A DNA stretch of 64,000 nt. It comes from an uncultured Acidobacteriota bacterium (GTDB lineage: Bacteria > Acidobacteriota > Thermoanaerobaculia > Multivoradales > UBA5704). Positions within the stretch are counted from its first letter, which is position 1. The number at the start of each line of letters is the position of its first letter. A program made the translations under genes and the position numbers. Under the pieces are notes generated by a model. The model saw only the letters and a program-made list of their open reading frames with translations. It ran no database searches and was not told the origin of the DNA. This document shows, piece after piece, positions 1-51,786 of the stretch. The stretch lies in NCBI GenBank assembly GCA_963770895.1, contig CAVYRF010000001.1, positions 704,481-768,480 on the forward strand, read 5' to 3'.

Positions 1-1026
1 TTCCAGCCGGTCGGGCGAAACCGCGATCTCGTGGAAGCTGGGCAGCGCCTTGTCGCTGTCGGGGAAGCGGCCGGCGTGCGGACCGGTGATGATCGCCGTC
101 AGGTCGCTGTGCACGATCTCGTGGCCGTCGAGCATGGCCAGGATCGGCAGCCCGCTGTGTGCATGACCCTGGGGATACCGCTTGGTGTAGTCGATCTCGG
201 GGAGCTTCGCGGGATCGGGACGCGTGCAGACGCCGTTGTCCCACGTGCTGTCCTTGCTCGCCAGGCACAGGTCTTCGTGGTTCACCTGGCTGCGGTACCA
301 CTCGGCGCCGGCAGGCTCAACGATCAGCGCGCCGAACAGCCCCTGCTGCAGCTGACCGCCGTCGCCGTTGCCGCCGTCGGCCAGGCTGAACGTGTCGCCG
401 GTGCTGTACAGCAGGAATTCCCCTTCTTCCGGGGCATACAGCTGATACGTGATCGGCGGCAGGCCAGGCAGAACCAGGCTGCCGGTGCCCCCGGGCGGGG
501 TGCCCTGGCCGTTCAGGCCGACCCACGATCCGTCGTCGGCCGGCCGGTTGAACCAGTTGAGCCCCTGCACGTGCACGCCGGTGGCGCGGGTGGAGGGCTG
601 GCCGGCTTCGGGCGTCGGCGACACCAGGTTGCGGAACTCCACCTGCAGGCACTGCCCGCGGTTGACCCGCAGCACCATCGGCCGGGCGCGCTTGTACTTT
701 TTCAGCTGCACCTGGCCCGCCTGCCAGGTCGTCCAGTCCGCCGTGTTGGCGTTGGTCGACGTCTTGCTGGACGGTTCGACGTCGCCGGCCAGGGCATAGA
801 TCATTGCGTTGGGGAGGGATGCCCCCAGGCGGTTGGCGGTGATGGTCGCGTCGAGCGCCACCACCCGCGCCGTGACCGTCTCCGTGCACGGCGCGCCGCT
901 CTGCGCCATGGCGCCTGCCGGCACCATCCATGCGGCCAGCATCAAAAGGGCCGCGGGCGCCCACCGCGAAACACTGCAAGCAAAGGTGGGCCAAAGTGTA
1001 CGACGGAGCACTGCCGAGCTCTCCAT
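1..1026 (-). CDS. multicopper-oxidase-like (cupredoxin-fold) secreted protein; 3' partial, C-terminus lies beyond the window start
   Basis: Minus-strand frame is open from the ATG at 1026..1024 through position 1 (342 codons). It is absent from the ORF track because it has no stop in the window. A GGGAGGAG RBS sits 4 nt upstream. The N-terminus is signal-peptide-like (MESSAVLRRTLWPTFACSVSRWAPAALLMLAAWMVPAGAMA). It contains MCO domain-1-like blocks (MVLRVNRGQCLQVEFRN ... TGVHVQG ... QQGLFGALIVEP), but the canonical HWHG motif has only one His, so it may be a SufI/FtsP-like protein without copper. Confidence 0.5.
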   Translation of the reverse strand, partial: MESSAVLRRTLWPTFACSVSRWAPAALLMLAAWMVPAGAMAQSGAPCTETVTARVVALDATITANRLGASLPNAMIYALAGDVEPSSKTSTNANTADWTTWQAGQVQLKKYKRARPMVLRVNRGQCLQVEFRNLVSPTPEAGQPSTRATGVHVQGLNWFNRPADDGSWVGLNGQGTPPGGTGSLVLPGLPPITYQLYAPEEGEFLLYSTGDTFSLADGGNGDGGQLQQGLFGALIVEPAGAEWYRSQVNHEDLCLASKDSTWDNGVCTRPDPAKLPEIDYTKRYPQGHAHSGLPILAMLDGHEIVHSDLTAIITGPHAGRFPDSDKALPSFHEIAVSPDRLE

Positions 1027-1267
1027 ATCTCCTCCCGTTGGCAAGTACTACCAGCCGCTGACCCCTACGCGATCGGCCCATCTTGGAGGTCAGGTCCCCC
1101 CAAAGGCCATGGATCAGAATCGCGGCATAATCACTGTGTTGGCGAGTACTTTAGCACGTGACGAGGCGCACCCGCAACGCCTCGATCACCCCCTCGCGCC
1201 CCCGCCCCGCGCGCCCCCGCGAGCGACGCGCGGGCGCCACAGTGCGCCGCCGCGCCGGAGAAGGCGG

Positions 1268-3724
1268 CTAGGTCAGCAGGCCGAGGCGCTTGATGGCGGC
1301 TTGCAGGGTGTCGATGGTGACGGGCTTGGTGAGGTGGATGGCGAAGCCGGCGGCGCGGCTGCGGCGGAGGTCTTCGTCGCGGCCGTAGCCGGAAAGGGCG
1401 ATGCCGCGCAGGGCGTAGCGGCCGGAGAGGCGGCGCATGAGGTCGTGGCCGTCGCCGTCGGGGAGACCCGGGTCGCTGATCACCAGGTCGATGCCGCCGC
1501 GGTCGGCCGCGCGCACGGCGTCCGCGATGGTGCCCGCGACGCTGACTTGCAGGCCCAGCAGCCGGAGGAGCTGATCGATGGCCTCGGCGGTGTCGGCGTG
1601 ATCTTCGACCAGCAGGATGTGGCCCTGCGGCGCGGCCGGCACGCTGACGGCGGGCGCCGCGCCGGACGTCGCCGTCGCCGGCATCGCCGTCGCCGGCGGC
1701 GCCGTGGCGGCCGCGACCGATGCGACCGATGCGTACGATGCCGACTGTGCGTCCGCGGCAGGCGCGCCGGCGTCCGCGTGCCCGGCGCCCGCCGCGGCGA
1801 AACCGGACGCGGCGTCGAGCAGCGGCAGCAGCACGGTGAAAGTGGCGCCGCCGTCCTGGCCGGGGCTGGCCGCGGTCAGGCTGCCGCCGTGGGCGGCGAC
1901 GATGGCGCGGCTGATGGCGAGCCCCAGGCCCAGGCCGCCGAAGCGCCGGGCGGTGCCGGACCGGCCCTGGTCGAAGGCGTCGAAGATGTGCGGCAGCGCC
2001 TGGGCCTCGATGCCGATGCCGGTGTCGGCGATCTCGATCGCCAGGTTGCGCGGCGGTGGCTGCTGCTGGTGCCGGTGCTCCGGCCGCTCGCGATCGGATG
2101 GGGCGGCGGCGCGGGGGGCGATATCGGAGCCGGGGGCGCCGGGAGCGCCGGCACCGGCGACGGCGGCGTCGGGGGCGGGCGCCGTGGCGACGAAGGTGCG
2201 GATGCGGATGGTGCCGCCGGCGGGAGTGAATTTGACCGCATTGCTCAACAGGTTCCAGAAGACCTGCGCCAGGCGTGCCGGGTCGCCCCAGACCAGGTGC
2301 TCTGCGGCGCCCAGGTCGCTGGTCAGGTTGCGCGCCGCAAGCTCCCGTTCGCCGCAGGTTTCGCAGGCCTGGCGGAGGACCGACCGCAGGTCGGTCGGCT
2401 GGCTGTGCAGCTCCAGCTTGCCGCGCGTGCTGCGGGTCAGGTCCAGCAGGTCGTCGATCAGCCGCGCCTCCAGGTCGATGTTGCGGCGGATGACGGCAAG
2501 GTCGGCCTGCAGCGGCGGCGGCAGCGCGGCGTCGGCCTCCAGCTTGGAGGCGATGGCCAGGACCGGAGTCAGCGGCGTGCGCAGCTCGTGGCTGAGGGTT
2601 GCCAGGAAGTGGTCCTTGGCGTGGTTGGCGGCTTCCAGGTCGCGGTACAGGCGCGCGTTGTCCAGGGCCACGGCGGTGCGCCGGGCCAGCTCGATGGCGA
2701 CCGTCAGGTCCTCGTGCTGGTGGCTGCGGAGGGAGTCGCCATAGACCAGGTGCCAGACCCCCAGGGTGCGGTCGCGTGCCACCAGCGGCAGGCTGACCAG
2801 CGAGCAGGGGGAGAGGGCGGCGACGATCGCCGTGCCGGGACCGGCCGCCAGCGCGGCGGGGATCGCCGCCGCCGATCCGTTGGCGAGCAGCACCGGCTCG
2901 CCCGTGCGCATGACGGCTGCCGCGACCGACCCGTCGTGCCACGCGGGCGGCGTGGACTGCAGCTCGGTGAGCTGGCGCTGGCGCTCGCTGTCGGGCGACT
3001 TGCTGACGACGCGCTGGCCGTTGGAGCCGCGGTCCTTCAACAGGTCGATGACGCACCAATCGGCGAGCCTGGGCACCGCCAGCCGGGCGCCGGTTTCCAG
3101 CGCTTCGCCGGGCCCCAGCCAGGCGGACAGCAGCTCGCCGGCGTCGGCGAGCAGGCGCAGGCCGTCTTCGGCGCGCTTGCGCTCGGTGACGTCTTCGACG
3201 AAAGCGACAAACCCCAGGACTTCGCTGCCATGGACGTGCGGCACGAAGCTGGCGCGCAGGCAGCGCTCACCCAGGTCATTGCCCAGGGGGGCCCAGCGCT
3301 CGCACGAAATCTGGCGCCCGGCGAGCGTCGCGTCGATCGCCTCCTTGAGCACGCCGAAGGCGCCCTCGCCCAGCACCTCCGCCATGGTCCGTCCCGAGAT
3401 CTGGTGCACCGGCATGCCGAACCAGGCCTCGTAACGGCGGCTGTTGAAGCGGTAGCACAGGTCGCGGTCGACGTAGGCGACCAGCGCGGGCAGCGAATCG
3501 GTCACCAGGTGGAGCTGGCGGATGAGGTCGGCGGTATCGAGCGTGTACACCTGCTCGCCGCCGGGCGCAAGCATCACGAACGCATCCACCTCGCCGCGGC
3601 GGATGGCGCTCACCGTCTCTTCGGGCTCGGCCAGGCGCGCCCGCAGCTCGGCAATTTCTACCAGCAGCTCCTGGCGGGATTTGGCGGCGTCGATGGCGTC
3701 GGTGGCGGCGTTGGCGTCGGTCAT
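1268..3724 (-). CDS. hybrid sensor histidine kinase / response regulator (PAS-GAF-HisKA-HATPase-REC)
   Basis: 818 aa. H-box LSHELRTPLTPV, HATPase G-boxes (IADTGIGI, GGLGLGLAISRAIV) and a C-terminal receiver domain (ILLVEDHADTAE...DLVISDPGLPDGDG...HLTKP). ATG at 3724. It lies 43 nt downstream of kaiB on the same strand. Confidence 0.9.
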   Translation of the reverse strand: MTDANAATDAIDAAKSRQELLVEIAELRARLAEPEETVSAIRRGEVDAFVMLAPGGEQVYTLDTADLIRQLHLVTDSLPALVAYVDRDLCYRFNSRRYEAWFGMPVHQISGRTMAEVLGEGAFGVLKEAIDATLAGRQISCERWAPLGNDLGERCLRASFVPHVHGSEVLGFVAFVEDVTERKRAEDGLRLLADAGELLSAWLGPGEALETGARLAVPRLADWCVIDLLKDRGSNGQRVVSKSPDSERQRQLTELQSTPPAWHDGSVAAAVMRTGEPVLLANGSAAAIPAALAAGPGTAIVAALSPCSLVSLPLVARDRTLGVWHLVYGDSLRSHQHEDLTVAIELARRTAVALDNARLYRDLEAANHAKDHFLATLSHELRTPLTPVLAIASKLEADAALPPPLQADLAVIRRNIDLEARLIDDLLDLTRSTRGKLELHSQPTDLRSVLRQACETCGERELAARNLTSDLGAAEHLVWGDPARLAQVFWNLLSNAVKFTPAGGTIRIRTFVATAPAPDAAVAGAGAPGAPGSDIAPRAAAPSDRERPEHRHQQQPPPRNLAIEIADTGIGIEAQALPHIFDAFDQGRSGTARRFGGLGLGLAISRAIVAAHGGSLTAASPGQDGGATFTVLLPLLDAASGFAAAGAGHADAGAPAADAQSASYASVASVAAATAPPATAMPATATSGAAPAVSVPAAPQGHILLVEDHADTAEAIDQLLRLLGLQVSVAGTIADAVRAADRGGIDLVISDPGLPDGDGHDLMRRLSGRYALRGIALSGYGRDEDLRRSRAAGFAIHLTKPVTIDTLQAAIKRLGLLT

Positions 3725-3725
3725 A

Positions 3726-3761
3726 GGTCCAGCGTTGGTATCTCGGGCGGGTCGCTGGACC
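3726..3761 (-). promoter_or_regulatory. perfect 9-bp inverted repeat (GGTCCAGCG-N18-CGCTGGACC) filling the kaiB-histidine kinase intergenic gap
   Basis: The rc of 3726-3734 equals 3753-3761 exactly. The stem ends 2 nt before the kinase ATG and 5 nt after the kaiB stop. No U-tract follows, so this is a possible translational or attenuator hairpin. Confidence 0.35.
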
Positions 3762-3766
3762 GCGCA

Positions 3767-4108
3767 TCATCTCCGCGGCAGCACATCCAATCCCACCAGC
3801 ACCCGTTCCGTCTGTGACAGGTCGCCGATGATCTTGCGCATCGGCGCCGGCAGCTTCCTTACCAGGGTCGGGATCGCCAGGATCTGGTCCGCCCGCGCCA
3901 GGTGCGGGTTGGCCATGAGGTCGATCACCTCGACCCGATATCTCCCTGCAAGATGCTCGCCGCAGATCTTTTTGAGGTTGCTGAGCGCCGCCATTGAGCG
4001 CGGGGTCTGGCCGGCGACGTAGAGCCGCAGGTCCCAGGTTCCCTCCTCCTGCTCGGGCGGGAGCGATGGAGGCGATGGAGACGAGGTGGTCTGGTCGTGG
4101 TTGCTCAT
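3767..4108 (-). CDS. kaiB: circadian clock protein KaiB
   Basis: 113 aa. [81 protein letters not shown] is a near-canonical KaiB thioredoxin-like sequence. GGAAGGAA RBS. Its ATG overlaps the kaiC stop (ATGA at 4105-4108). It is embedded in a longer spurious 387-aa ORF. Confidence 0.9.
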
Positions 4109-5892
4109 AGCCGTTCCTTCCGAGCCGGCGAGCGGCCGCCGGCCCCCTCTGTCTGGCGCTTTTGCGCCATGTCCTGCCGCAGGCGGGCGTCGTCTTCGCG
4201 GCGGCGTTGCTCGCCGGCGAGCAGCGCCTCCAGGCGCTCCTCCTCGACTTTGAATTCGTGGCGCAGCAGGGCGATGCGGTTTTCCACGTCCTCGCGCTTG
4301 AGCTCCACTTCGCGCCGCCGCCGCTGCACCTCCAGCTGCCAGTCCGCCATCTCTTTGTCCTGTCGCGCCTGCTCCGCGGTGCGCGCCGAGCCGACCAGGA
4401 TGCCGGCAGGACCTACAAAAACCTCCGACAGCCGGATGCCGTGGTCGGTCAGCAGCAGCTCGCGCGTCTGCCGCGAGTGACCCATGCCGCGCGACTTGAA
4501 CAGCGACAGGGTGCGGTTGCGCTCGCCGCCCGCTTCGACGTCGCTCAACACCAGCCAGCTGTCGATCAGCGACGAGACGCCGACCACGGATTCCTGTTCG
4601 TTGCGGTGTGGCGTCGTCAGGCTGGTGTACAGGGCGGTGACGCGGCGCTCCTTCAGGAAGTCCAGCAGCCGCACCAGCAGCGACCGCACGTCGTTGGCGG
4701 AGCTGGTGGACAGGAAGGTGCCGATCGAATCGATCACGACCATCTGGGCGTCGGTGTCGCGCACCGCGCGGTGGATCACCGCCAGATGGCTTTCCAGGCC
4801 GTGCAGCGTCGGCCGCGCCGCGTGGAAGCGCAGCAGCCCCTCGCGCAGTGGGGTTTCCATGTCGAGGCCGATCGATGCCATGTTGCGCACCACCTGGTCG
4901 TGCGACTCCTCGAAGGAGAAATAGAGGCACTTTTCGCCGCGCTTGCAGGCTGCGGCGACGAAGGACGACGCCAGGCTGCTCTTACCGCTGCCGGCAACGC
5001 CGGAGATCAGGACGCTGCTGCCGCGGTAGAAGCCGCCGCCCAGCATGGCGTCCAGGTCCGGCACGCCGCTCGAGATCCGCTCGCGCGACACCTTGTAGTC
5101 GAGGCCGGCGGCGGTGATCGGCAGCACCTCCAGGCCTTCGCTGTCGATCAGGAAGGGGTATTCGTTGGTGCCGTGGGCCGAGCCGCGGTACTTGACGATG
5201 CGCAGGCGGCGCGTCGCGATCTGGTCCACCACCCGATTGTCCAGCAGGATGACGCAGTCCGACACGTACTCTTCGATGCCGAAGCGGGTGAGCGCGCCGT
5301 CGCCGCGTTCGGCGGTGATGATCGCCGTCACGCCGCGGTCCTTGAGCCAGCGGAAGAGTCGCCGCAGCTCGGCGCGCAGGATGGCCTGGTTGGTGAGACC
5401 GCCGAAGAGCGCTTCCAAGGTGTCCAGGACAACCCGTCTGGCGCCGATCGCGTCGATGGCGAAACCCAACCGGATGAACAGCCCCTCCAGGTCGTAGTCG
5501 CCGCTCTCCTGGATCTCGCCGGGTTCGATGTGCACGGTGTCGACGGTCAGCAGGTGCTGCTTCGCCAGGGCGTCCAGGTCGAAGCCCAGCGAGCGGACGT
5601 TGGCGCTCAGCTCGTCGGCGTTCTCCTCGAAGGCCAGGAAGACGCCGGGTTCGCCGCACCGCGTCGCGCCGTGCACCAGGAAGTGCATCGCCAGGAGCGT
5701 CTTGCCGCACCCGGCGCTGCCGCACACCAGGCTGGGCCGGCCGGCCGGCAGGCCGCCGCCGGTGATCTCGTCGAGACCGGCGATGCCGGTGGCGGCCTTG
5801 GGCAGCGCGCCGGCGGCGGTCTGCACGCGGCTGTGGCTGACGGTGGTCGGCGGCGGTGCGGGCCGCTGGTCGCTGTCCGTCGTCTTGCTCAT
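4105..5892 (-). CDS. kaiC: circadian clock protein KaiC (double RecA-like ATPase) with extended C-terminal coiled-coil tail
   Basis: 595 aa from ATG 5892 (reverse-translation NAMSKTT verified). CI Walker A is GSAGCGKT and CII Walker A is GVAGSGKS, with two RecA/DnaB-like halves. The last roughly 90 aa are charged and heptad-like ([75 protein letters not shown]). The 212-aa Arg-rich N-terminal extension of the ORF-track entry is rejected. Confidence 0.9.
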
Positions 5893-5909
5893 GGCGTTGG
5901 TCTGGCGCC

Positions 5910-7796
5910 TTACCCTGACGATAGCGACCCTCGCTGTATCCGGCCGCCGCCTGCCCGTGCCTGCCGCGGGTGGGAAGCGGTCGGAGTATACACCTCCGGC
6001 ATGGTGGCGCCGGGTGACGACAGCATCCCCCTGGCCGCCGCCAGGGCTGCCGCCAGGGGGATGCGGGCGGGGCGGTTGCGGGCGGCGTCGAAGAGGGCCT
6101 GGCTGAGCGGTCCCGCGGGCTGGGAGTGGACCAGCTTTTCGTGGTGGGCAAAGTAGAGGGTGGGCGTGGCGGCGGCTTCGGCCAGGTGGATCGGGGCGCT
6201 GTCGTTGGAGACCAGCAGGCGCGCGCCGGCGACCAGGGCCGCCAGGGCGCCGAAGGAATCCCGGCGGATGACGATGCGGCCGCGGTCGGCGGCGCCGGCC
6301 TGCCCGCGGCGCAGGTGTTGCTCCACCGCGGCGAGCACCGCGGCGTCGCCGGCGCCGCCTTCGATCAGCACGTGCAGGCCGTCGGCCGCCAGGCCCAGCG
6401 CCAGGGCGGCGAACTTGCGCGCCGGCCAGCGGGTCGACGAGCGCGCGCCGGGGGTGAGCACCGCGAAGGGGGCGTCGCCGATCCCGGCGGCGGCGAGCGC
6501 CGCGGCGGCTTCGTCGCGCCAGGCGGCGCACAGCGGCAGCTCGATGCGGCGGTCGACCGAGCCCGCCGGCGCGGCACCGGGCAGCGGATCGAGCGCGTGC
6601 AGCAGCAGGCGCGGGCTGGGCAGGGTGTTCCAGAAAAACCAGGCCTCGTGGGTGAACAGCGGCGACGCCTCGCGGCCGTCGTCCGCCGCGTCGAAGTATT
6701 CCAGGTTGACCCGCCAGGGAATGCCAAGCTGGGCCGCGGTTTCAGCCAGCCACCGTGCCGCCGGGCGCCGCACAAACGCGAACAGTGCGGCGTCGAAGCG
6801 GCGCGCCGCCAGCTGCTGCACCAAAAGCTGCCGGGGGGAGAGCCCGGCCGCGCCGTGCGGATTGACCAGAGGGTCCAGCGGGTCGAGCGGATCCAGCTGT
6901 GCCAGCGGGCTCGCCGCCTCCGGAGGATGCAACGGGTTCACCCGGTCCGGCGGGTTCGCTGGGGTCGGGCTCACGGGCTTCAGCGCGTTCGGAGTGTTCG
7001 GTGTCTTTGGCGATTCCCGTGGGTCCGGCGGCAGGATCAGCAGCTCACCCAGCCGCGGATTGGTTGCCAGCGCCGGCACCGCGCCCGGGGCGGCCAGCAC
7101 GGTGATCCGGACACCGGGCAGCCGGCTGTGCAGCGCGCGCAGCAGCGGCGTCAGCCACAGCGCGTCCCCCAGATGGGAGCGCGCCTGGAAGACCAGCACG
7201 CTGCGGACCGGGGCGGCGGGGCCGGGCGCCGCGGTCAGCCAGTGCGGCGAGTCCGCCGCCAGCGCGGCGGCGAACGCGTCGCCCGCCGCCCGCGCCGCCG
7301 CCCCGTCGGGCAGCCGCCATTGGAAGGCGCGCGGCACCGGCGCCAGCCACCAGCCGGGCCGCCCGGCAATGCGCTCTGCGATGGCGGCGTCGTCGCCCAG
7401 CAGCACGCCGGCGGCGCCCGGCCGGGCGAGGCCGCCGGGGCTCCAGGGCGGTGCCCCTCCGTCGGGCGCCGCGGCGCCGCCGGGGATCCGCGCGACCGCC
7501 GCCGCCGGGAGCAGCGCAAAGGGGGCGTCGGTGGCCAGGGCCGAGCGCAGCCAGACCCGCGTGCGCACCGCGGGCCGCGCCGCCCCCAGCCCCTCGAGCA
7601 GGCCGTACAGGCCGGCGAATTCCAGCCGGTGATGCACCGGCTGCCCGCACACCAGCTCCAGGTCGAAGCCCGCGGCGACCCCCTCCTGTGCCGCGACGGC
7701 GTCCAGGGCGCGCAGCAGGCCGGCGACGGTCGCGGGCAGCACCGGCAGGGGCAAGGTTCCCGCCGGGCGGCGAAGCTGTGGCTGGGGATCGGTCAT
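5910..7796 (-). CDS. GT9 family glycosyltransferase (ADP-heptose:LPS heptosyltransferase-like) with roughly 210-aa N-terminal domain of unknown function and a Pro-rich insertion
   Basis: C-terminal 400 aa match the GT9 fold (VLVFQARSHLGDALWLTPLLRALH...ITVLA...; GDAPFAVLTPGARSSTRWPARKFAALA...GRIVIRRDSFGALAALVAGARLLVSNDSAPIHLAEAAATPTLYFA). An inserted segment reads PPDPRESPKTPNTPNALKPVSPTPANPPDRVNPLHPPEAASPLAQLDPLDPLDP. Start chosen at ATG 7796 (MTDPQPQ), the first Met after the domain-free Arg-rich stretch. The start is uncertain and there could be two genes. The stop is 17 nt before the kaiC start. Confidence 0.6.
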   Translation of the reverse strand: MTDPQPQLRRPAGTLPLPVLPATVAGLLRALDAVAAQEGVAAGFDLELVCGQPVHHRLEFAGLYGLLEGLGAARPAVRTRVWLRSALATDAPFALLPAAAVARIPGGAAAPDGGAPPWSPGGLARPGAAGVLLGDDAAIAERIAGRPGWWLAPVPRAFQWRLPDGAAARAAGDAFAAALAADSPHWLTAAPGPAAPVRSVLVFQARSHLGDALWLTPLLRALHSRLPGVRITVLAAPGAVPALATNPRLGELLILPPDPRESPKTPNTPNALKPVSPTPANPPDRVNPLHPPEAASPLAQLDPLDPLDPLVNPHGAAGLSPRQLLVQQLAARRFDAALFAFVRRPAARWLAETAAQLGIPWRVNLEYFDAADDGREASPLFTHEAWFFWNTLPSPRLLLHALDPLPGAAPAGSVDRRIELPLCAAWRDEAAAALAAAGIGDAPFAVLTPGARSSTRWPARKFAALALGLAADGLHVLIEGGAGDAAVLAAVEQHLRRGQAGAADRGRIVIRRDSFGALAALVAGARLLVSNDSAPIHLAEAAATPTLYFAHHEKLVHSQPAGPLSQALFDAARNRPARIPLAAALAAARGMLSSPGATMPEVYTPTASHPRQARAGGGRIQRGSLSSG

Positions 7797-7897
7797 CAAC
7801 CGGGTTGGAGCAGTCGATCGCGCGCGCCGGCGCCGGCGCGGCTGCCGGCACCCCGGTGCAGTATTATAGTGCCACCTTACAGCCGCCAAACGAATCG
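7797..7897. promoter_or_regulatory. divergent promoter region between the GT9-like gene and the P-loop kinase gene
   Basis: 101-bp intergenic spacer, locally AT-richer (cagtattatagtgccaccttacagccgccaaacgaatcg), with a TATTAT/TATAGT -10-like element 30 to 35 nt upstream of the ATG at 7898. Confidence 0.3.
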
Positions 7898-8572
7898 ATG
7901 GGTCACGGGGCAAACGACGAAACCTGGCTGCGCGAGCGGCTGCGCCAGGTCTACTGGCTGGGGGGCTCGGCCTGCTCGGGCAAGACCGCCGTGGCGCGCC
8001 GCCTTGCCGCGGCGCACGGGCTGGCGGTGTACCACACCGACGACTCCTTCGAGCGCCATCGCCGGCAGGCCGATCCGCGCCGCTACCCGGCGTTCTGCCG
8101 CGTCGGCGACCTGGCCGTCGAAGCGCTGCTGGCGGCGCCGGCTGATGAGCAGGCCAGCGAAATGCTGGCCTTCCACCGCGAGCACCTGGAGCTGGTGATC
8201 GCCGACCTGGCGGCGGCGCCGCCGGACCAGCCTCTGCTGGTCGAAGGAACGTGCCTGCTGCCGGCGCGCGTCGCGCAGCTGGCGGCGGGGCCCGCGCGGA
8301 CCCTGTGGCTGCTGGCGACGCCGCGGTTCCGGCGCCGCAGCTACCGCCGGCGCGGCCCCTGGGTGGAACGCATGCTCGCCGCGTGCGATCAGCCGGCGGC
8401 GGCCTTCGAGCGCTGGATGGCGCGCGACGACGCGCTGGCCGACTGGCGCCGGCAGCAGCTTGCCGCCCTCGGTCTGGCATGGCGCGACGTCGACGGCAGG
8501 CGCCCGCCGGCAGAAGAGGCCGCCGCCGTGGCAGCCCATTTCCAGCTCGCCGTGCCGGCGGGCGTGGGCTGA
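7898..8572 (+). CDS. P-loop NTPase / small-molecule kinase (AAA_33-like)
   Basis: 224 aa. Walker A GGSACSGKT is followed by a nucleoside/sugar-kinase-like fold (LAVYHTDDSFERH). ATG at 7898 is the first in-frame Met after the divergent spacer. Confidence 0.7.
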   Translation: MGHGANDETWLRERLRQVYWLGGSACSGKTAVARRLAAAHGLAVYHTDDSFERHRRQADPRRYPAFCRVGDLAVEALLAAPADEQASEMLAFHREHLELVIADLAAAPPDQPLLVEGTCLLPARVAQLAAGPARTLWLLATPRFRRRSYRRRGPWVERMLAACDQPAAAFERWMARDDALADWRRQQLAALGLAWRDVDGRRPPAEEAAAVAAHFQLAVPAGVG

Positions 8573-8669: not shown

Positions 8670-9482
8670 ATGGAAGACACCGTAGCGGCGGCGGGCGCCA
8701 CCGACGCCGAGCGCTATTTCTTCGAGGCCAACGGCTACCTGGTGATCCACGACGCCCTGGGGCCGCGCGACCTGGCGCGGGTGTGCGCCGCGGGCGAAGC
8801 CGCCGCCGCGCGCTGGCGGGCCGATCCGGCGCTGCCGGGGCCGCGCCGCGCCGACCTGGAAAGCATCCTGGCGATCGTCGAATACGACCCGGTGTTCCTG
8901 GAGGTGCTGGAAAACCCGCGCGTCCTGCCGGTGGTGCGCGACCTGCTGGGCCCGGATCTCATGCTGGTCGACAACGACTACTTTCTCACCCCGCCCGGCG
9001 CCACGATCCGCCGCGGCTGGCACTACGACGAATCCTTCCCCGGCGTGTATCACCCGCGCTCGCGGCTGCTGGTCAAGGTGTTCTACGTGCTGCAGGACAT
9101 CCCGCCCGGCGGCGGCGCCACGCTGGTGCTGCCCGGCTCGCACTGCTTTGCCGCCGACCTGCGCCTGCCCAACTCCGAGGTGCCCGAAGACCTGCCGGGA
9201 AGCGTGCCGCTCCACCTGCCGGCGGGGGCCGCCTATCTGATGTCCGGGCGCACCTATCACTCGGCCGGCACCAACCGCTCGGCGCTCTACCGCAAGCTGC
9301 TGATCTATACCTATGGGCACAAATGGATGCGCGTCTGGGACAGCTACGAACCCTCGGCGGCGCTGGCGGCGCGCGCCGAGCGGCCGATCACCCGCCAGCT
9401 GCTGGGGCTGACCGATCCCTATGGCGCCAACGCGCCCCTGGCGGCAAGCGACGGCCAGGCGGCCGCCCAGGTGGAAGCGTGA
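8670..9482 (+). CDS. phytanoyl-CoA dioxygenase (PhyH) family Fe(II)/2-oxoglutarate oxygenase
   Basis: 270 aa. HxD...H facial triad (WHYDESF ... TYHSAGTN). GGAAGGAGG RBS 8 nt upstream of ATG 8670. Confidence 0.85.
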   Translation: MEDTVAAAGATDAERYFFEANGYLVIHDALGPRDLARVCAAGEAAAARWRADPALPGPRRADLESILAIVEYDPVFLEVLENPRVLPVVRDLLGPDLMLVDNDYFLTPPGATIRRGWHYDESFPGVYHPRSRLLVKVFYVLQDIPPGGGATLVLPGSHCFAADLRLPNSEVPEDLPGSVPLHLPAGAAYLMSGRTYHSAGTNRSALYRKLLIYTYGHKWMRVWDSYEPSAALAARAERPITRQLLGLTDPYGANAPLAASDGQAAAQVEA

Positions 9483-10261
9483 GCGCGGCCACCCTGTGCG
9501 ACGACGAGCGCCTCTTCTTCGAGGCCAACGGCTACCTCATGCTGGAAGGCGCCCTGACCGCCGCCGAAGTCGCCCGCCTGCGCCAGGTCACCGACGAAGC
9601 CGAGCAGCGTTTTCACCGCAACCCCGATCTGCCGGGCTCGCGCCTGCCGGAATTCCTTGAGCTCGAAGCCATCATGGAGTATCACCAGCAGCTCTTCGAT
9701 CTCGTCGAGCACCCCCACGTCTTCCCGCGCGTGCGCCAGGTGCTGGGCCCCGACATCGCCGTGATCGATCACGCCTACTACGTCACCCCGCCGGGCGGCG
9801 TCGTCACCGGCAGCGCCTGGCACACCGACCTGGGCAAGCGCATTCACGGCGTCTACAACCCGCGCTCGATCCTGATGGTGCGGGTGATGTACACCCTGGA
9901 CGACGTCGGTCCGAACGACGGCGCCACCCTGGTGCTGCCGGGCTCGCACCGCTTCACCCCCGACGTCGCGGTGCCGCGCGTCGAAGTGCCCGAGCAGATG
10001 CCCGGCAGCGTGCGCCTGACATGCCCGGCCGGCAGCGCCTACCTGTTCAACGGCAACATCCTGCACTGCCCCGGCAACAACCGCGGCACCCGCAACCGCC
10101 GCATGCTGCTCTACAACTACGGCCACCGCTGGATGCGCATGTGGAAAGGCCACGACCCGTCGCCATGGCTGGCCCAGCGCGCCACCACCCCCATGCGCCG
10201 CCAGCTCCTCGGCCTCGGCCGCCACTACTACGGCGCCGACGCCCCCTGCGAACCCGCCTGA
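9479..10261 (+). CDS. PhyH-family dioxygenase, paralog 2
   Basis: 260 aa. It parallels the upstream paralog (ERLFFEANGYLMLEGAL; WHTDLGKR; ILHCPGNN). GTG start at 9479 overlaps the upstream stop (GTGA coupling). Start uncertain. Confidence 0.8.
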   Translation: MSAATLCDDERLFFEANGYLMLEGALTAAEVARLRQVTDEAEQRFHRNPDLPGSRLPEFLELEAIMEYHQQLFDLVEHPHVFPRVRQVLGPDIAVIDHAYYVTPPGGVVTGSAWHTDLGKRIHGVYNPRSILMVRVMYTLDDVGPNDGATLVLPGSHRFTPDVAVPRVEVPEQMPGSVRLTCPAGSAYLFNGNILHCPGNNRGTRNRRMLLYNYGHRWMRMWKGHDPSPWLAQRATTPMRRQLLGLGRHYYGADAPCEPA

Positions 10262-11442: not shown

Positions 11443-13359
11443 TCAGAGCCCGCGGCCGAGCAGGGCGTGGATGCGGTCCAGGTACAGGCCGGCGACCGCC
11501 TCCTGCGAGCACAGCCGCGCCACCTTGCGGCGCAGCGGCGCGCCGACGCCGGGGCCCAGGCGGGCCAGCGCCTGGCGCAGCGATGCGACGTCCGGTTCGC
11601 CGTCGCGGCTGTCGACGAACAGGATCTCGTCGGCGAACACCTGCGGCAGGGCGCCGACGCGGGTGGCGATCACCGGCACCCCCAGCATGCCGGCCTCCAC
11701 GACCACCATCGGAAACCCTTCGCTGGCCGACAGCACGACGACCGCGTCGACGCTGCGCAGCAGCGTGCCGATCGCCATGCCCGGCGGCAGCAGGTGCAAG
11801 CGCTGGGTGGTGCCGTGCGCGGCGGCCAGGGCCGCCAGGCCGGCGCGGGTCTGCTCGGCGGTGTCGATGCCCTGCACGACCAGGTTGCAGTCGAGCTCCG
11901 CCAGGCGCTCGACCAGCCAGGCGGCGCGCTTGAACAGCAGCAGCCTGCCCAGGAAGCCCAGGATCGGGGGATGCCGCGATCGTGCCGTCCGCGCCGCGCC
12001 GCCGGCGAACAGGCGCTGGCCGCTGCCGCGCAGGCGATCGCGTGAGCACGGGTTGGGGATGACCACGGCGTCGTCGATGCGGTCGCGCATCACCGGCGAC
12101 ACGCAGGCGCAGTCGTCGATCACGTGCCGCCAGCGCCGGTGGACGTCGACCTCCTGCTCCTTTTCCGTGTGCACCACGCGCAGCGAGCGCGGCCTGCGGG
12201 TCATCGACGCCAGCGCCCGCGGCACGGCGGGATTGAGCCCGTACCACAGCGCCACGTCCTGGTCCTCCAGGGCCGCCACCAGGTCCTGGCCGGTGGCGGC
12301 CACCGTCGCCGTGCCGAAGCGCGCCACCAGCTCCGGCGCCAGGTCGAAGAGCGGCTGCGGCCGCGCGTCGGCGTTGGGATCGTTGGGATCGCGGCGGGCC
12401 GGCAGCGGCGCGCCGCCCGGCACCTGGTCCAGGACGCAGACGGACACGGCGGCCCGGCGGCGCAAGGCCTCGGCCACCGCGATCATCGCGGTTTCGCCGC
12501 CGCCCAGCTCGCGGTGGGGGAAGACCACGCAGACGCGCGGCCGCGCGTGCCGCCCCCGCCGTCCCTGCCGCAGCGGTGCGAGCGGCGGCCGCTTGGCGCC
12601 GATCCCCGCCTTGCGATGGGCGATGAAGCTCCCCCAGGGGTGGGGACCGCCGGGGTCGAGGTGCACGACGTGGGTGGCGGCCAGGGCGTCGGCGATGCGC
12701 GGCGGATTGAACGGGAAGTGCCATTCGCCGCGAATCCAGCCGACGCGGTGCAGGCGGCCGGCCGCCGCCAGGCGCGCCAGGATCTCGCCCTCCGCGCCCT
12801 CGCAGTCCAGTTTCAACAGGTCGATCTCGGGGTTGCCGTGGCGGTCGAGCAGCTCGATCACGTCCAGCGCATCCACCACCACGGTGGCGGCGGCGCCTTC
12901 GCCGTGCGCCAGCGCCGCGCCCACCTCCTCGACGCGGCTGGCCGCGGCGTTGCCGTCCGCGTTGGCGCCGCCCTGGCGCAGCCGGGTGGTGCGCGCCCCC
13001 GGCCGGCCGAGCACCGCGCCGGCAAACACGCTCACCCCGTCCAGGCCGCCGACGTTGTGCGCCAGCAGGGCGGCGCTTTCGGGGTCCGGCTCGGCGGCGA
13101 TCACCCGCGCCTCGGGCCACAGGCGTTTGACCTTCAGGGTGAAGGCGCCGACGTGGGCGCCGACGTCGAGCACCGTGCGCGGGCGGTCGCCCGCCGCGCA
13201 AAGCGGCGCCAGCTGGTATTCGTCGCCTTCCAGGATGGAGCGCACCACTTCCTCGTCGCAGCGCCGCCCCGGCGGCTGGGCGCGCACCCAGAGCGTGAAG
13301 CCGGCCACTTCGATCGGCGCGGCATCCAGCAACAGGCGGGTGGCGACGACGAGCTGCAA
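11443..13359 (-). CDS. FkbM-family methyltransferase fused to GT4 (group 1) glycosyltransferase
   Basis: 638 aa. N-terminal FkbM/MTase-like region (LDVGAHVGAFTL...AAEPDP) and C-terminal GT-B retaining-type motif (VVLSASEGFPMVVVEAGMLGVPVIATRVGALPQVF). Confidence 0.8.
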   Translation of the reverse strand: MQLVVATRLLLDAAPIEVAGFTLWVRAQPPGRRCDEEVVRSILEGDEYQLAPLCAAGDRPRTVLDVGAHVGAFTLKVKRLWPEARVIAAEPDPESAALLAHNVGGLDGVSVFAGAVLGRPGARTTRLRQGGANADGNAAASRVEEVGAALAHGEGAAATVVVDALDVIELLDRHGNPEIDLLKLDCEGAEGEILARLAAAGRLHRVGWIRGEWHFPFNPPRIADALAATHVVHLDPGGPHPWGSFIAHRKAGIGAKRPPLAPLRQGRRGRHARPRVCVVFPHRELGGGETAMIAVAEALRRRAAVSVCVLDQVPGGAPLPARRDPNDPNADARPQPLFDLAPELVARFGTATVAATGQDLVAALEDQDVALWYGLNPAVPRALASMTRRPRSLRVVHTEKEQEVDVHRRWRHVIDDCACVSPVMRDRIDDAVVIPNPCSRDRLRGSGQRLFAGGAARTARSRHPPILGFLGRLLLFKRAAWLVERLAELDCNLVVQGIDTAEQTRAGLAALAAAHGTTQRLHLLPPGMAIGTLLRSVDAVVVLSASEGFPMVVVEAGMLGVPVIATRVGALPQVFADEILFVDSRDGEPDVASLRQALARLGPGVGAPLRRKVARLCSQEAVAGLYLDRIHALLGRGL

Positions 13360-13431
13360 GCGGCTCCTCCTTGGTCAGGCCCCGGATCGCGTGGGAGGCT
13401 CGGCCGGCATGGTATATTCTCCGCGCTCTTT

Positions 13432-14088
13432 ATGGAAAGCCTCATCAGGGTGCTCCCATCGGCTCCCCTCGCCATCCACCGCCGGAACGCTCGTGCCGGA
13501 GCTCTGGCGATGCTCCTGCTGGCCGCCTCCTGGGCCGGGGCTCCCGCTGGCGCCGCTGGGGCCGCGGCGGTTCCGGTCGTCGCCTCGGGCGACCTGCGCA
13601 TCCCGGACGTGACGCTGCTCGACCAGGACGGCCGGCCGGTGCGGTTCTGGAGCGACCTGGCGCGGGACAAGGTGGTCGCGGTCAGCTTCGTGTTCACCAC
13701 CTGCACCACCATCTGCCTGCCCATCGGCGCCAACTTCGGGCGCCTGCGCAGCCAGTTGGGCCGCCGCGCCGGCGCCGACGTCCAGCTCATCTCGATCAGC
13801 ATCGATCCCGAAGAGGACACGCCCGCCCGCCTCAAGTCCTGGGCCGCCAGGTTCGGCGGCGGACCGGGCTGGACGCTGCTCACCGGCCCGTCGCGGGACG
13901 TCGATCGTCTGCTGCGCGCGCTGCAAGCGTATACTCCCGATTTCCGCAACCACTCGTCGCTGATCTTGGTTGGAAACGCGGCGACGGGAACCTGGCGGCG
14001 GATCTCTGGCCTGGCGCCGGCGGACCAGATCGCCGCGCAGCTCACCAGCCTGGCGGCGCCGCAACGGCCGGTGCCGCCGGCCCCCTGA
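13432..14088 (+). CDS. SCO1/SenC family copper chaperone (thioredoxin fold)
   Basis: 218 aa. CxxxC motif FTTCTTICP, a conserved His-containing C-terminal region, and a Tat/Sec-like N-terminus (HRRNARAGALAMLLLAASWAGA). TATATT -10-like element 15 nt upstream. Confidence 0.8.
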   Translation: MESLIRVLPSAPLAIHRRNARAGALAMLLLAASWAGAPAGAAGAAAVPVVASGDLRIPDVTLLDQDGRPVRFWSDLARDKVVAVSFVFTTCTTICLPIGANFGRLRSQLGRRAGADVQLISISIDPEEDTPARLKSWAARFGGGPGWTLLTGPSRDVDRLLRALQAYTPDFRNHSSLILVGNAATGTWRRISGLAPADQIAAQLTSLAAPQRPVPPAP

Positions 14089-14162
14089 CGTTTTCGGTCT
14101 GGCGCCGGTCTTAGGCTGCCAGCCATCGATTTGAGTGTTCGGAGGTTGAGAAGGAGCTGCAG

Positions 14163-22103: not shown

Positions 22104-25100
22104 GTGTCTGACAGCGAGCACCCTTTCGCCGCGCGCGGAGCTGGCGCGGCTCCGCAGGACCTCGCGCCGGCCGGCGATCTGGACGGCGGGGACGGCCGTG
22201 ACGCGATGCTGCGGGCGGCCGGGCCGGAAGAGCGGGCCGCCCTGGCGCTGGCCTGGCTGCGGCGCCAGGCGGCGGCCACCCTCGACCGGGACGCCGCGCA
22301 GCTCCCCGCGGACCGTTCGCTGGTGGCCCTGGGATTGGACTCGCTGGCGGCGGCCGAGCTCTCGGGCGCCGTCGAAAACATCCTGAAAGTGCCGCTCGGT
22401 GTAGCCGACCTCCTGGCCGGCGCCAGCCTCGCGGAGCTGGCCGGCGACATCGCCCGCAATCTCGATGAGGCTGCGGCGGCGTCGCACGCCGGCCAAGCCG
22501 GCGGTACGGTCCACGCCGGGGACGACGGCCGCCAGGTGGTCGTGCCGGAGCCCCACCGCGCCGGCGCGCCGCCCCCCGCCGCGCCGTCGCCCCGCACCGC
22601 CCTGTCGTGGGGCCAGCGCGCCCTGTGGCTGGTGGACCGCATGGCGCCGGGCAACCCGGCCTACATCCTGGCCGGCGCCGCGCACGTCGGGGTTGGCGCC
22701 GCGCGCGGCGGCGACCTCGACGTGGCGCGGTTGTGTCAGGCCATTACCGCCCTGGTCGCTCGCCATGCGGCCTTGCGCATGCGGTGCGAGCAGGGGAGCG
22801 ATGGAGAGGTGGTGCAGGTGGTGGGCGACCAGCCGCTGTTCGGCTGGCTTGAGGTGGATGCCGGCGTCCTGAGCGAGCAAGGGTTGCACGAGCTGGTGGC
22901 AGAGGAGGCTTGGCGGCCGTTCGACCTCGCCCGCGGGCCGCTGCTGCGAGTGGCTCTGTTCCGCGGTGGCGGCCGGGCGCCGCTGCTGGTGCTCGCGGTG
23001 CATCACATCGTCGCCGACTTCTGGTCGCTCGGCGTGATGATCGACCAGCTGGGTGCGCTCTACCAGGGGCGCCTCCTGGCGCCGCTCGCGGCGACGCATG
23101 GCGAGCACGCGCGGCGCCAGGCGGAGCGGTTGGCGGGACCCGAGGGGGAGGCCCTGGCGGCCTGGTGGCGCGCCGCGCTGCCGCCGGGGGCGCCGGCGCT
23201 CGAGCTGCCGACCGACCGGCCGCGGCCGCCGGTGCAGGGATTCCGCGGTGGCGCGCGGACGCGCTGGTGGGAGCGGGAGCTGGTAGGGGAGCTCGACCGG
23301 CTGGGCCGGCGGGCCGGGGCCACGCCGTTCATGACCCTGCTGGCCGCCTACATGACGCTGCTGCACCGCTACACCGGCCAGCCGGAGCTGCGGGTGGGGA
23401 CGCCAGCGTCCGGCCGTGGCGCGCCGGACCTCTCGGGCCTGGTGGGCTACTTCGTCAATCCGCTGGTGGTGCGCGGCGAGCTGGCCGGCAACCCCGGCTT
23501 CGAGCAGCTGCTGAGCCGGGTGCGGCAGGCCGTGCTCGCGGTGTTTGCCCACCAGGACTTCCCGTTTGCGCTGCTCGCCGAGCTGCTGGGCGGCGCCCGC
23601 GATCCCAGCCGGCCGCCGGTGTTCCAGGCGATGTTCGTGTTCTACAGCGAGCGGCGCGCCGGCGAGCGCGGGATGAGCGGTTTCGCGCTGGGCGAGGCGG
23701 GCGCGCGGCTCGATCTTGGCGGCCTCACGCTCGAATCGGTGCGGCTGCCGCGGCGCGGCGCGCAGGTCGATCTGACGTTGCTGGCGGCCGATCGCGACGA
23801 TCGCGACCAGCGCGCCGAGCGCGAGGGTGCGCGGGCGGTCTCGTTGCAGTTCGACAGCGTGCTCTTCGACGGCGCCACGGCGGAGCGGATGCTGGGTCAC
23901 CTGTGCGCGCTGGCCGCCGCCGCGGTCGCCGATCCGGGGTGCGGCATCCGCGACCTGCCGCTGCTCACCGCCGGCGAGCGCCAGCAGGTGGCGGAGTGGA
24001 ACGCCACCGCCGTCGCCTGGCCTGGCGACCTGCGCCTGCACCAGCTTTTCGAAGAGCAGGCGCGCCGCACCCCGGACGCGGTGGCCGTGGTGGTCGACGC
24101 CGCTACCGACGCCGACGCCGACGCCGACGCTGATACCGGCGCCGACACCGCCGGCGCCGGGTCCCGTCGCGGCCCCGCACCGCCGGCGGCCGGCCGCGCG
24201 GTGGCTTCCGCCGCGTGCTGGACCTACCGCGGCCTCGACCGGCGCGCCGACCGGCTGGCGCGAAGGCTGCGGCAGGCCGGCGTCGGGCCGGAATCCGTGG
24301 TGGCGATCCTGGCCGAGCGCTCGGCCGCCATGGTCGCCGGCCTGCTCGCCATCCTCAAGGCGGGCGGCGCCTACCTGCCGCTCGATCCCGACCACCCCGC
24401 CGAGCGCCTGCGCCAGATGCTGCACGACTCAGGCGCCGGCGTGCTCCTGGCACAGCGCCGGCTGCTGCCGCGGCTGGGCGAGCCGGACGCGCCGCCTGTC
24501 GTCGCGGCCGCGGTGCTGGTGCTCGACGATCCCGACCGGGACGATTCCGCCCAGGACGAGCAGGACGATCCCGCCACCGGCGGTGCCGCGTTCGGCGCTG
24601 CCGCTCTTGCGCTGGCGCCCGACGGCCGGCCGGAGCGTGCGCCGCCGCCGCTGGAGCGCGCCGTCCACCCGGATAGCCTGGCGTACGTGATCTATACCTC
24701 GGGCTCGACCGGCCGGCCCAAAGGCACCATGAACACGCACCGGGGCATCGTCAACCGGCTGCTCTGGATGCAGCAGCAGTACCGATTGGCGGCCGACGAC
24801 CGGGTGTTGCAGAAGACGCCGCTGTCCTTCGACGTGTCGGTCTGGGAGCTGTTCTGGCCGCTCGCGACGGGGGCGTGCCTGGTGATGGCCCGTCCGGGCG
24901 GGCACCGCGACAGCGGCTACCTGCTGGCGGCGCTGGCGGCGCACCAGATCACCACCGTGCATTTCGTGCCGGCGATGCTGAGCGATCTTCTCGCGGCCCT
25001 GCCGCCGCGGGGCGATGCAAGCTCGGGCGCCGGCCCGTGGGACGCCGCGCCGGCAGGGCTGCGCCGGGTCGTGGCAAGCGGCGAGGCGCTGCCCTACGGT

Positions 25101-39227: not shown

Positions 39228-40816
39228 GCGCCAGCGTTGCCTCGGCAGGCGTGTCGGGCGCGGCGGCGGGCCGCCAGCGGGTGCTGCTGGTCAATCCGCG
39301 CATGTGCTCGCGCCGCTCGATGCGCCTGCCGCTGTCGCTGCTGTCGCTGGGTTCGGTCCTGGAAGGGCGCTACGACTACCAGCTGATCGACGGCAATGTC
39401 GATCCCGACGCCATCGGCACCGCGCTCGCCGCGCTGGCGCAAGGCGACCATGCAATGGTGGGGGTGAGCGTCATGCCGGGGCCGCAGGTGGGGCCGGCGA
39501 TCGCGCTGTCCACCGCGGTGCGCGCGCACTTCCCGCAGGTGCCGATCGCCTGGGGCGGGTACTTCCCGACCCTCTACCCGGATTCGGCGATCAACGCTTC
39601 GTACGTCGACTACGTGGTGCGCGGCCAGGGCGAAGAAACCCTGCTGGAGCTGCTGGCGCGGCTGCCCGACGCCGGGCCGCCGGCGCCGCCATCCGACTCG
39701 GCTGCCGACGCCGGCGCCCTGGCCGGCCTGGCGGGCCTGACCTTCAAGCACGACGCCGAAGTGCGGCACAACGCCGACCGCCACTTCAAGCCGCCGGACG
39801 ACCTGCCGCCGCTGCCCTACCAGCGCCTGGCCGACGTCACGCCCTACCTGCGCCCGACGTTCATGGGGGCGCGCACCGGCGTGCACCAGGCGGCCCTGGG
39901 CTGCCGCTATCGCTGCAGCTTCTGCGGCGTCGTCACGATGTTCAACGGCGTCACCCGCCTGCAGGGAGCGTCGCGCCTGGCGCAGGCGGTGACGACGCTG
40001 CGCGACAAGTACGGCGCCGACTCGATGCAGTACTACGACAACAATTTCTTCGACCGCGAAGAGAGCAGCGTGCCGCTGCTCGAAGAGCTCGCCCGCCTGC
40101 AATCGCCCTGGTGGTGCTATGCGCGCGCCGACACCATGGCGGGCTTTTCGACCCGCACCTGGGAGCTCATCCGCCAGAGCCGCATGCGCATGGCCTACAT
40201 CGGCGCCGAAGCGGGGAGCGACGCGGCGCTGCGCCAGATGAAAAAGGGGTCGCGCGTCGAAGACACGTTGGAGGTCGCGCGCCTGTGCCGCGCCTACGGC
40301 GTGGTGCCCGAGCTGTCGTTCGTGCTCGGCGGCCCCGACGATCCCGAAGGCGAGGTCGAGCACACCCTGAGCTTCATCAAGCGCATCAAGCAGATCCACC
40401 CCACCTGCGAAGTCGTGCTGTACTTCTACAGCCCGACGCCGCGGCGGGAAGCCGCGTCAGAGGCGACGCGGGCCAGCGGCCTGCGCCTGCCGGTGATGGA
40501 CAACTACGGCCCGGACGGCCCGCCGCTGCCGACGACGCCGCTCGAATGGACCGAGCGCAAGTGGATCGACTACGTGTGCCACCAGGACGCGCCCTGGCTG
40601 TCGCCGCGCCTGCGCCGCCGCGTGCGCGACTTCGCGACCGTGCTCGGCTGCCGTTTCCCGACCGTGCAGGACGCCAAGACCCCGGACTGGGGCAAGGCGA
40701 TCCTGCGCAACCTGTCCCGCTGGCGCTACAGCAGCGGCCTCTACGGCAGCCCCTGGGAGCTGGAGCTGGCCCGGCGCCTGGTGCCCTTGCGCCAGCCGCA
40801 GCGCGAAAGCCTGTGA
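39224..40816 (+). CDS. B12-binding-domain radical SAM protein (class B rSAM)
   Basis: 530 aa. N-terminal cobalamin-binding-like domain and CRYRCSFCG radical SAM cluster. ATGA overlap with the upstream methyltransferase. Confidence 0.85.
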   Translation: MSASVASAGVSGAAAGRQRVLLVNPRMCSRRSMRLPLSLLSLGSVLEGRYDYQLIDGNVDPDAIGTALAALAQGDHAMVGVSVMPGPQVGPAIALSTAVRAHFPQVPIAWGGYFPTLYPDSAINASYVDYVVRGQGEETLLELLARLPDAGPPAPPSDSAADAGALAGLAGLTFKHDAEVRHNADRHFKPPDDLPPLPYQRLADVTPYLRPTFMGARTGVHQAALGCRYRCSFCGVVTMFNGVTRLQGASRLAQAVTTLRDKYGADSMQYYDNNFFDREESSVPLLEELARLQSPWWCYARADTMAGFSTRTWELIRQSRMRMAYIGAEAGSDAALRQMKKGSRVEDTLEVARLCRAYGVVPELSFVLGGPDDPEGEVEHTLSFIKRIKQIHPTCEVVLYFYSPTPRREAASEATRASGLRLPVMDNYGPDGPPLPTTPLEWTERKWIDYVCHQDAPWLSPRLRRRVRDFATVLGCRFPTVQDAKTPDWGKAILRNLSRWRYSSGLYGSPWELELARRLVPLRQPQRESL

Positions 40817-50385: not shown

Positions 50386-50387
50386 CG

Positions 50388-51785: not shown

Positions 51786-51786
51786 A

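Follow-up and report, generated by a model that had tools for sequence, protein, structure and literature searches.

A kaiC-kaiB-kinase locus of probable Rhodobacter sphaeroides type in an uncultured Acidobacteriota bacterium, and a kaiB-linked module in its kinase

A locus encoding KaiC, KaiB and a histidine kinase was analysed in a stretch of 64,000 nucleotides (nt) from an uncultured Acidobacteriota bacterium (assembly GCA_963770895.1, contig CAVYRF010000001.1, positions 704,481 to 768,480); this whole stretch is referred to as the window and all coordinates are given within it. By analogy with solved homologues, the locus probably specifies a timer, or a sensor of energy state, built from KaiB and KaiC without need of KaiA, as in Rhodobacter sphaeroides, with a signalling kinase attached, and we give this reading a probability of roughly 0.8. 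An earlier description of the window made from the letters alone (the original prediction) had proposed a kaiC-kaiB-kinase operon, with a KaiC of the same architectural class as that of R. sphaeroides. The first proposal was confirmed and the second supported: kaiC, kaiB and the kinase gene are all on the minus strand, a gene call from the guanine plus cytosine (GC) content of codon positions, made independently of the first reading, returned identical coordinates for them (Table 1), and the best solved relatives of KaiC and KaiB were both R. sphaeroides proteins. In an overlapping ATGA the stop codon of kaiC meets the start codon of kaiB, as had been described, and kaiB is translationally coupled to kaiC through this overlap; a Shine-Dalgarno-like run, GGAAGGAA, stands upstream of the kaiB start. 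The spacer between kaiB and the kinase gene measured 42 nt rather than the 43 nt first given.

KaiC matched PF06745 of Pfam in two stretches (E=1.9e-111, 371.4 bits) and passed NF006799 of NCBIfam with 707.8 bits against a cut-off of 408, while the cyanobacterial KaiC model TIGR02655 was failed, with 338.4 bits against a cut-off of 546.25. The best solved relative was R. sphaeroides KaiC (KaiC-RS) in 8DBA, with E=4.5e-191 and query residues 29-567 aligned to chain residues 4-542. Foldseek comparison with the PDB placed 8FWI, 8FWJ and 8DBA at the top, with 54-56% identity over 528-558 aligned columns that take in the tail helix, and ranked the tail-less 8DB3 and all cyanobacterial KaiCs behind them. 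An AlphaFold2 model of the monomer was built on 59 homologues, across which the Walker lysines and both Glu-Glu pairs (E89/E90 and E328/E329) were invariant, as was T65 next to K64; W446 and R477 were likewise invariant. The phosphosites were placed by means of the S413E/S414E mutant structure 8FWI, and the equivalent S440 and S441, invariant in 59/59 homologues, form a Ser-Ser pair in CII instead of Ser-Thr. Residues 1-27 were predicted to be disordered. On these matches KaiC is identified as a double-domain ATPase/autokinase of the KaiC-RS type (kaiC2 clade), with both ATPase domains intact as judged from their catalytic residues.

The C-terminal tail, which had been described as heptad-patterned and charged, was modelled by AlphaFold2, after the CI and CII domains, as a single helix over residues 501-582. 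Block means of the predicted local distance difference test (pLDDT) were 83-92 for residues 501-560 and dropped to 81, and then to 65 by residue 580. A coiled-coil check had been suggested for residues 505-595, and the tail residues quoted at that time correspond to 507-572; helix rather than disorder was predicted as far as 582, and the end, from about 580-583 to 595, was predicted to be disordered. Eleven of the 16 L/I/V/M/F residues in the tail fall at a/d positions of one unbroken heptad register, a result matched by 0.16% of shuffles, and the hydrophobicity spectrum peaks at a period of 3.5. The a/d columns of the family profile are the same (522, 529, 536, 540, 543, 547, 554, 557/558, 568 and 575). 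Query residues 501-567 aligned gaplessly to the coil of 8DBA, whereas KaiC of Synechococcus elongatus aligned only to residue 503; the net extension over the latter is ~67 amino acids (92 against 25 residues past the common core), and the tail length is the same as that of KaiC-RS. No indel was present over residues 501-582 in 115/121 homologues. By alignment the tail is a residue-by-residue homologue of the KaiC-RS coiled coil, and its strict length conservation fits a geometric constraint on the arm and would be consistent with a dodecamer.

It is very improbable that the tail is instead an unstructured or single-helix appendage which leaves hexamers unpaired and KaiC acting as a plain hexamer: charged residues make up half of its 82, hydrophobic a/d positions are sparse in its first half, D568 stands in place of the family's Leu at one core position and the pairing of hexamers is beyond the reach of a monomer model, yet the gapless alignment is to a 12-helix bundle observed by crystallography, the heptad register is significant (p ~0.002), the helix was modelled with good pLDDT as far as residue 560, R579 is retained in 58/59 homologues and a disordered tail would not readily show such conservation of length across phyla. 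A phmmer search with the tail only (95 residues) against 1.84 billion representatives gave only seven weak matches, to fragments, a scant and uninformative yield which probably results from composition correction on a charged helix.

KaiB matched PF07689 with 90.5 bits against a cut-off of 27, and its best solved relative was R. sphaeroides KaiB (KaiB-RS; 8FWJ_M, 7.3e-31). It fell just below two NCBIfam equivalog cut-offs (104.2 against 110 and 99.2 against 145.3), as expected for a non-cyanobacterial KaiB. The 41 proteins predicted in the window and nine open reading frames (ORFs) from its unassigned gaps contained no KaiA family match, in agreement with the original prediction. The locus resembles the R. 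sphaeroides KaiBC system (8DBA, 8DB3, 8FWI, 8FWJ; PMC10076222) in its double-domain KaiC, Ser-Ser phosphosites, equal-length heptad helix, KaiB and lack of a nearby KaiA, and differs from it in that the window KaiC comes from a different high-GC lineage and has a 27-residue disordered N-terminal extension. From the KaiABC system of S. elongatus, with which it shares a homologous KaiC fold (about 36% identity), a homologous KaiB and, probably, a histidine kinase coupled to the Kai proteins, the locus departs in the Ser-Ser pair, the extra C-terminal residues and the failed TIGR02655 match, as well as in the KaiA not found in the window and a kinase without the KaiB-like N-terminal domain of SasA.

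The original prediction implied that a tailed KaiC was rare, and this was incorrect. Among the 120 best of at least 8000 KaiC relatives examined in a database search, nearly all were tail-bearing, with lengths of 565-630 amino acids and from many phyla. A scan of one genome per species in GTDB gave at least 588 relatives, of which 80 loci were kept; most matches extended to query residue 579 or further. These 80 loci came from Acidobacteriota, Planctomycetota, Bacteroidota and several classes of Pseudomonadota, and also from Nitrospirota, Verrucomicrobiota, Myxococcota, Desulfobacterota, Gemmatimonadota, Chloroflexota and a metagenome-assembled genome (MAG) of Methanoperedens. A 'large clade' with a tail ~50 amino acids longer and two serine phosphosites, mainly in the kaiC2 subgroup, has been published (Pitsawong et al., Nature 2023, PMC10076222), and the dodecameric form of KaiC has been traced to an ancient ancestor (2026 preprint). 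Among the relatives sampled, a KaiC with the tail is the usual form in a very large clade of many phyla, the architecture is the rule in the kaiC2 clade, and the present locus adds one somewhat divergent member. In about 40 of the GTDB loci, in addition to loci L003, L005, L006 and L013, kaiB was present as a tandem pair that separates kaiC from the sensor gene, and the second member of the pair was 40-63% identical to the KaiB of the window, which has one kaiB.

The kinase contains PAS_4, GAF_2, HisKA, HATPase_c and Response_reg domains by Pfam, and the proposal of a PAS-GAF hybrid kinase with a receiver was confirmed by these domains and by its motifs: an H box SHELRTP at residues 378-384 (H379), an N box LLSNAVKF at 492-499, DTGIGI at 567-572, GGLGLGL at 596-602 and, in the receiver, LVISDPGLP at 747-755 (acceptor D751) and HLTKP at 797-801. 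By these motifs it is a hybrid two-component sensor histidine kinase with intact H, N, G1 and G2 boxes and receiver Asp. A SasA-type kinase was considered and rejected, as NF006800 scored 102.3 bits against 342 and matched at profile positions 141-314 (the kinase core) only, and the N-terminus consists of a helix-hairpin region and a PAS domain. The order kaiC-kaiB-kinase is kept in three close relatives, locus L081 (93%) and loci L082 and L083 (72-74%), and also in 73 of 78 GTDB loci, and the L083 kinase has the same PAS_4-GAF_2-HisKA-HATPase-REC architecture; this conservation agrees with the suggestion that the kinase is plausibly coupled to the clock as an output or an input. The same order is found in the Rhodopseudomonas palustris operon of kaiC, kaiB and a PAS histidine kinase, which by its published description also has a longer KaiC C-terminus and no KaiA (Ma et al., PLoS Genet 2016, PMC4794148); a kinase of the PAS-GAF hybrid kind with a receiver sets the window apart from it. 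One promoter was predicted to serve all three genes in R. palustris, and a kaiC mutant had a fitness defect only under cycling conditions (PMC4794148).

The only part of the locus that may be new is the kaiB-linked N-terminal module in the first ~60 residues of the kinase. It was modelled with low confidence (pLDDT of 56-65) as a helix (residues 17-30), a second helix (34-42) and a hairpin (48-61), next to a PAS domain modelled with confidence; the alignment behind the module model was shallow, since only seven proteins were obtained when kinase residues 1-200 were used in a word-indexed search for homologues. No model in Pfam or NCBIfam covers the module, and no description of a helix-AIRxGEVDA-hairpin module was found in the literature searched. 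In 73 of the 78 GTDB loci that bear kaiB, the next ORF opens with a helix, AIRxGxVDAxVV and a hairpin GExVYTL, usually followed by a PAS domain, whatever the phylum and in proteins from ~150 to 1218 amino acids long. Seventy complete proteins encoded downstream of kaiB contained PAS (62), HATPase_c (59), HisKA (38), receiver (26), HisKA_3 (20) and GAF (12) domains, and therefore the front end is constant while the output varies. A census of the module motif over 1.2 Mb of loci recorded 71 occurrences directly after kaiB and two genuine ones elsewhere. Metagenome contigs were also scanned with the AIRxGEVDA pattern alone, which gave 80 loci, these being the matches most similar to the query module; kaiB lay no more than 500 nt upstream in 71 of the 73 that were informative (at least 450 nt of upstream sequence). 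An alignment of the module (A4) was too diverse to seed the collection scan and a narrower one (A5) was used. In the loci sampled, then, the module was found almost exclusively in genes after kaiB.

Tentatively, and at slightly less than even odds, the module may be a dedicated and previously undescribed Kai-docking adaptor, portable between proteins and plugging varied sensor and output proteins into the state of KaiB/KaiC across phyla. Its clients may include HisKA, HisKA_3 and HWE kinases, LuxR-type regulators and PAS-only proteins, and such a role may parallel that of the KaiB-like domain of SasA or the pseudo-receiver of CikA in cyanobacteria. Outside cyanobacteria, as the authors of the KidA work point out, PAS genes frequently share an operon with kaiBC, and KidA, a multi-PAS protein, binds fold-switched KaiB and offers a precedent in its N-terminal PAS-containing region (PNAS 2022, PMC9478674); KidA, compared by description only, is in contrast a GGDEF/EAL protein encoded away from kaiB. 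The output and input partners of non-cyanobacterial Kai systems are poorly understood, and a module that is near-diagnostic for the gene after kaiB provides a testable handle on signalling from Kai proteins to two-component systems. It may matter more than the KaiBC finding itself, which changes little.

Dodecamer formation, KaiA independence and hourglass behaviour are inferred here from the R. sphaeroides work (PMC10076222). Following that work, six subunits would form a KaiC hexamer, and the tails of two hexamers would form a 12-helix bundle and so a tail-to-tail dodecamer. The dodecamer would keep the A-loop exposed, allowing KaiC to phosphorylate S441/S440 without KaiA, and a shift in coil register, coupled to the phosphosites, would speed dephosphorylation. 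KaiB bound on the CI ring would tip the system to dephosphorylation when the ATP/ADP ratio falls, and the cycle would therefore be driven by the environment and hourglass-like rather than self-sustained. From synteny, the helix-hairpin module at the N-terminus of the kinase would be its docking site for KaiB and/or KaiC, and the kinase would turn the Kai state, together with its own PAS/GAF inputs, into a phosphorelay output.

Several points weigh against this reading. The oligomeric state, the independence of KaiA and the sensitivity to ATP/ADP are all transferred from a homologue that is 54-56% identical, and three residues of the allosteric network which connects coil to phosphosites in KaiC-RS (S413, S414, W419, Y436, L438, V449 and R450; PMC10076222) are changed in the window. 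S463 replaces a Tyr present in 52/59 homologues, F465 a Leu present in 51/59, and T476 a Val at a position that is Val, Ile or Leu in 55/59; in addition R474 replaces a well-conserved Asn. These four residues (codons at about 4465-4506, minus strand) are common only to the 93% relative. Since three network residues differ, the coupling of coil to phosphosites may not be identical to that in KaiC-RS. The position of KaiC-RS E369 (R385 in S. elongatus KaiC), which has been linked to CII activity (2026 preprint), is Ser395 here and Ser in most of the family. Contacts between the kinase and its partners are proposed from gene order only, with a low-confidence model of the module, and the metagenome sample favours Kai-linked relatives. 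A kaiA gene may also be present in the genome outside the window. Finally, no phototrophy genes were present among the predicted proteins of the window, and a day-night role is therefore only a possibility. The locus nevertheless serves as a point of comparison in which coil, phosphosites and catalytic residues are kept and three residues of the allosteric path are changed, and it is therefore a natural test of the generality of the KaiC-RS mechanism.

That KaiBC and the kinase act as a general energy-charge or stress sensor in a non-phototroph, and not as a day-night timer, is possible, though on the unlikely side. The gene content of the window is in keeping with such a role, as are the nearest named relatives of its KaiC, KaiB and kinase, which among the matches listed were Thermoanaerobaculia/Acidobacteriota MAGs from soils, and the spread of the clade over many phyla that are not phototrophic, with Bacteroidota, Planctomycetota and a Methanoperedens MAG among its members. 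In Legionella and Pseudomonas, KaiC homologues are reported to contribute to resistance to stress. The published cue of KaiC-RS is the ATP/ADP ratio, which reports metabolic state and not light directly (PMC10076222). However, organisms of soil and sediment also meet daily cycles of temperature and substrate, and such a sensor would differ from a timer in physiological use rather than in mechanism, and nothing in the sequence tells the two apart.

The KaiBC timer or sensor would most likely be transcribed from a lineage-conserved promoter that lies within the GT9-like ORF upstream, at its 3' end. The gap of 17 nt between this ORF and the kaiC ATG, on the same strand, was measured as first described. 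The accompanying remark that there was no room for a promoter did not hold, and the suggestion that one might lie inside the GT9 gene gained a candidate, found by conservation: TATACT(C) and a leader block, GGCAGGCnGCGGnCCGGATnCnGCGAGGGTC, are common to the window, L081, L082 and L083 upstream of kaiC, and in the window they lie in the last ~35 codons (~100 nt) of the GT9-like ORF. In L082 and L083 the two elements occupy a true intergenic region, with a divergent ArsR-type operon upstream of kaiC, and a GT9-like gene precedes kaiC only in the window and L081. Conservation is poor over the final ~35 codons of the GT9-like ORF, where there is also a frame-breaking 7-nt indel relative to L081. 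On this comparison, the kaiC promoter and leader most likely constitute an old unit that has been overrun by the GT9-like reading frame. The leader motifs were not found upstream of kaiC in more distant loci and are therefore lineage-specific.

It is improbable that the three genes are the distal part of a transcript from the GT9-like gene or earlier and so tied to envelope polysaccharide synthesis. The shared strand and the short gap, the retention of the arrangement in the 93% relative and surroundings rich in glycosyltransferase and methyltransferase genes would suit such a transcript, as would a scan of positions 900-8000 for the sigma-70 consensus, which found no promoter, a result expected at 72% GC and not counted as absence. 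Against it, neither the 72-74% relatives nor, bar two distant and non-adjacent matches, the 80 GTDB loci have the GT9 neighbour, the TATACT and leader sequences are conserved with relatives in which they are truly intergenic, and the 3' end of the GT9-like ORF is the poorly conserved stretch with the frame-breaking indel. The GT9-like ORF scored below the TIGR02201 cut-off of NCBIfam. A longer kaiC ORF, starting at a GTG at 6531, was rejected because its overlap with the GT9-like gene would reach 600 nt, in a frame that lacks the coding signature. Terminator-like matches were considered as the operon end and none was used, as three of the four lie inside coding sequence; they include one at 969-951 in the signal-peptide region of the next gene and two around 4441-4424 inside kaiC.

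Table 1. Positions of the features of the Kai locus and its upstream neighbour in the window
Feature	Position	Strand	Details
Kinase gene (hybrid sensor histidine kinase)	1268-3724	minus	818 aa; Pfam domains and motif positions
kaiB-linked N-terminal module (predicted)	3542-3676	minus	kinase residues 17-61: helix, AIRRGEVDA helix, beta-hairpin GGEQVYTL
kaiB	3767-4108	minus	113 aa; PF07689; ATGA junction with kaiC
kaiC	4105-5892	minus	595 aa, ATG to TGA; ORF list and codon-position GC gene call
KaiC C-terminal helix, predicted coiled-coil arm	4147-4392	minus	residues 501-582; AlphaFold2, heptad statistics, alignment to 8DBA
KaiC CII domain	4393-5106	minus	residues ~263-500; Walker A GVAGSGKS at 298-305; catalytic E328/E329
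Ser440/Ser441 codons	4570-4575	minus	equivalent to KaiC-RS phosphosites S413/S414; alignment to 8DBA and 8FWI
KaiC CI domain	5107-5808	minus	residues ~29-262; Walker A GSAGCGKT at 58-65; catalytic E89/E90
GT9-like (heptosyltransferase family) ORF	5910-7742	minus	PF01075; neighbour, outside the Kai unit
Putative kaiC leader block	5926-5955	minus	GGCAGGCGGCGGCCGGATACAGCGAGGGTC; common to L082/L083 (KaiC 72-74% identical) despite different upstream genes
TATACT, candidate -10 of kaiC promoter	5985-5990	minus	~90-93 nt upstream of the kaiC ATG, inside the GT9-like ORF

The gene after the kinase (1-1029, minus strand) covers the N-terminal part of a giant protein that is secreted, bears a signal peptide and has no Pfam match; its homologue in L081 (5166-10148) is longer than 1973 amino acids and 91% identical. 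The intergenic region between the kinase gene and this gene is very well conserved and contains a direct repeat, AGTACTYGCCAAC, at 1037-1049 and 1138-1150 (minus strand). Both copies are also present in L081, and a regulatory site is possible.

An Rfam search of the window gave no match. Elsewhere in the window, two stretches of 0.8-0.9 kb each (13333-14162 and 40817-41757) held no ORF with the coding signature of the genome; in their longest ORFs the first codon position was the GC-richest, and these had no Pfam match. Just upstream of the region of the GT9-like gene there are two tandem paralogues of PhyH-family dioxygenases (8670-10261, plus strand). B12-binding radical SAM genes form a cluster at 46896-53367 (minus strand) with three adjacent genes and one at 46896, and another is at 39281-40816 (plus strand); a SPASM radical SAM gene and a methyltransferase gene lie among them, and they adjoin glycosyltransferase/polysaccharide genes. 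A non-ribosomal peptide synthetase of 4114 amino acids, encoded as a single protein at 22104-34448 (plus strand), contains three adenylation domains, four condensation stretches, four carrier domains and a terminal thioesterase.

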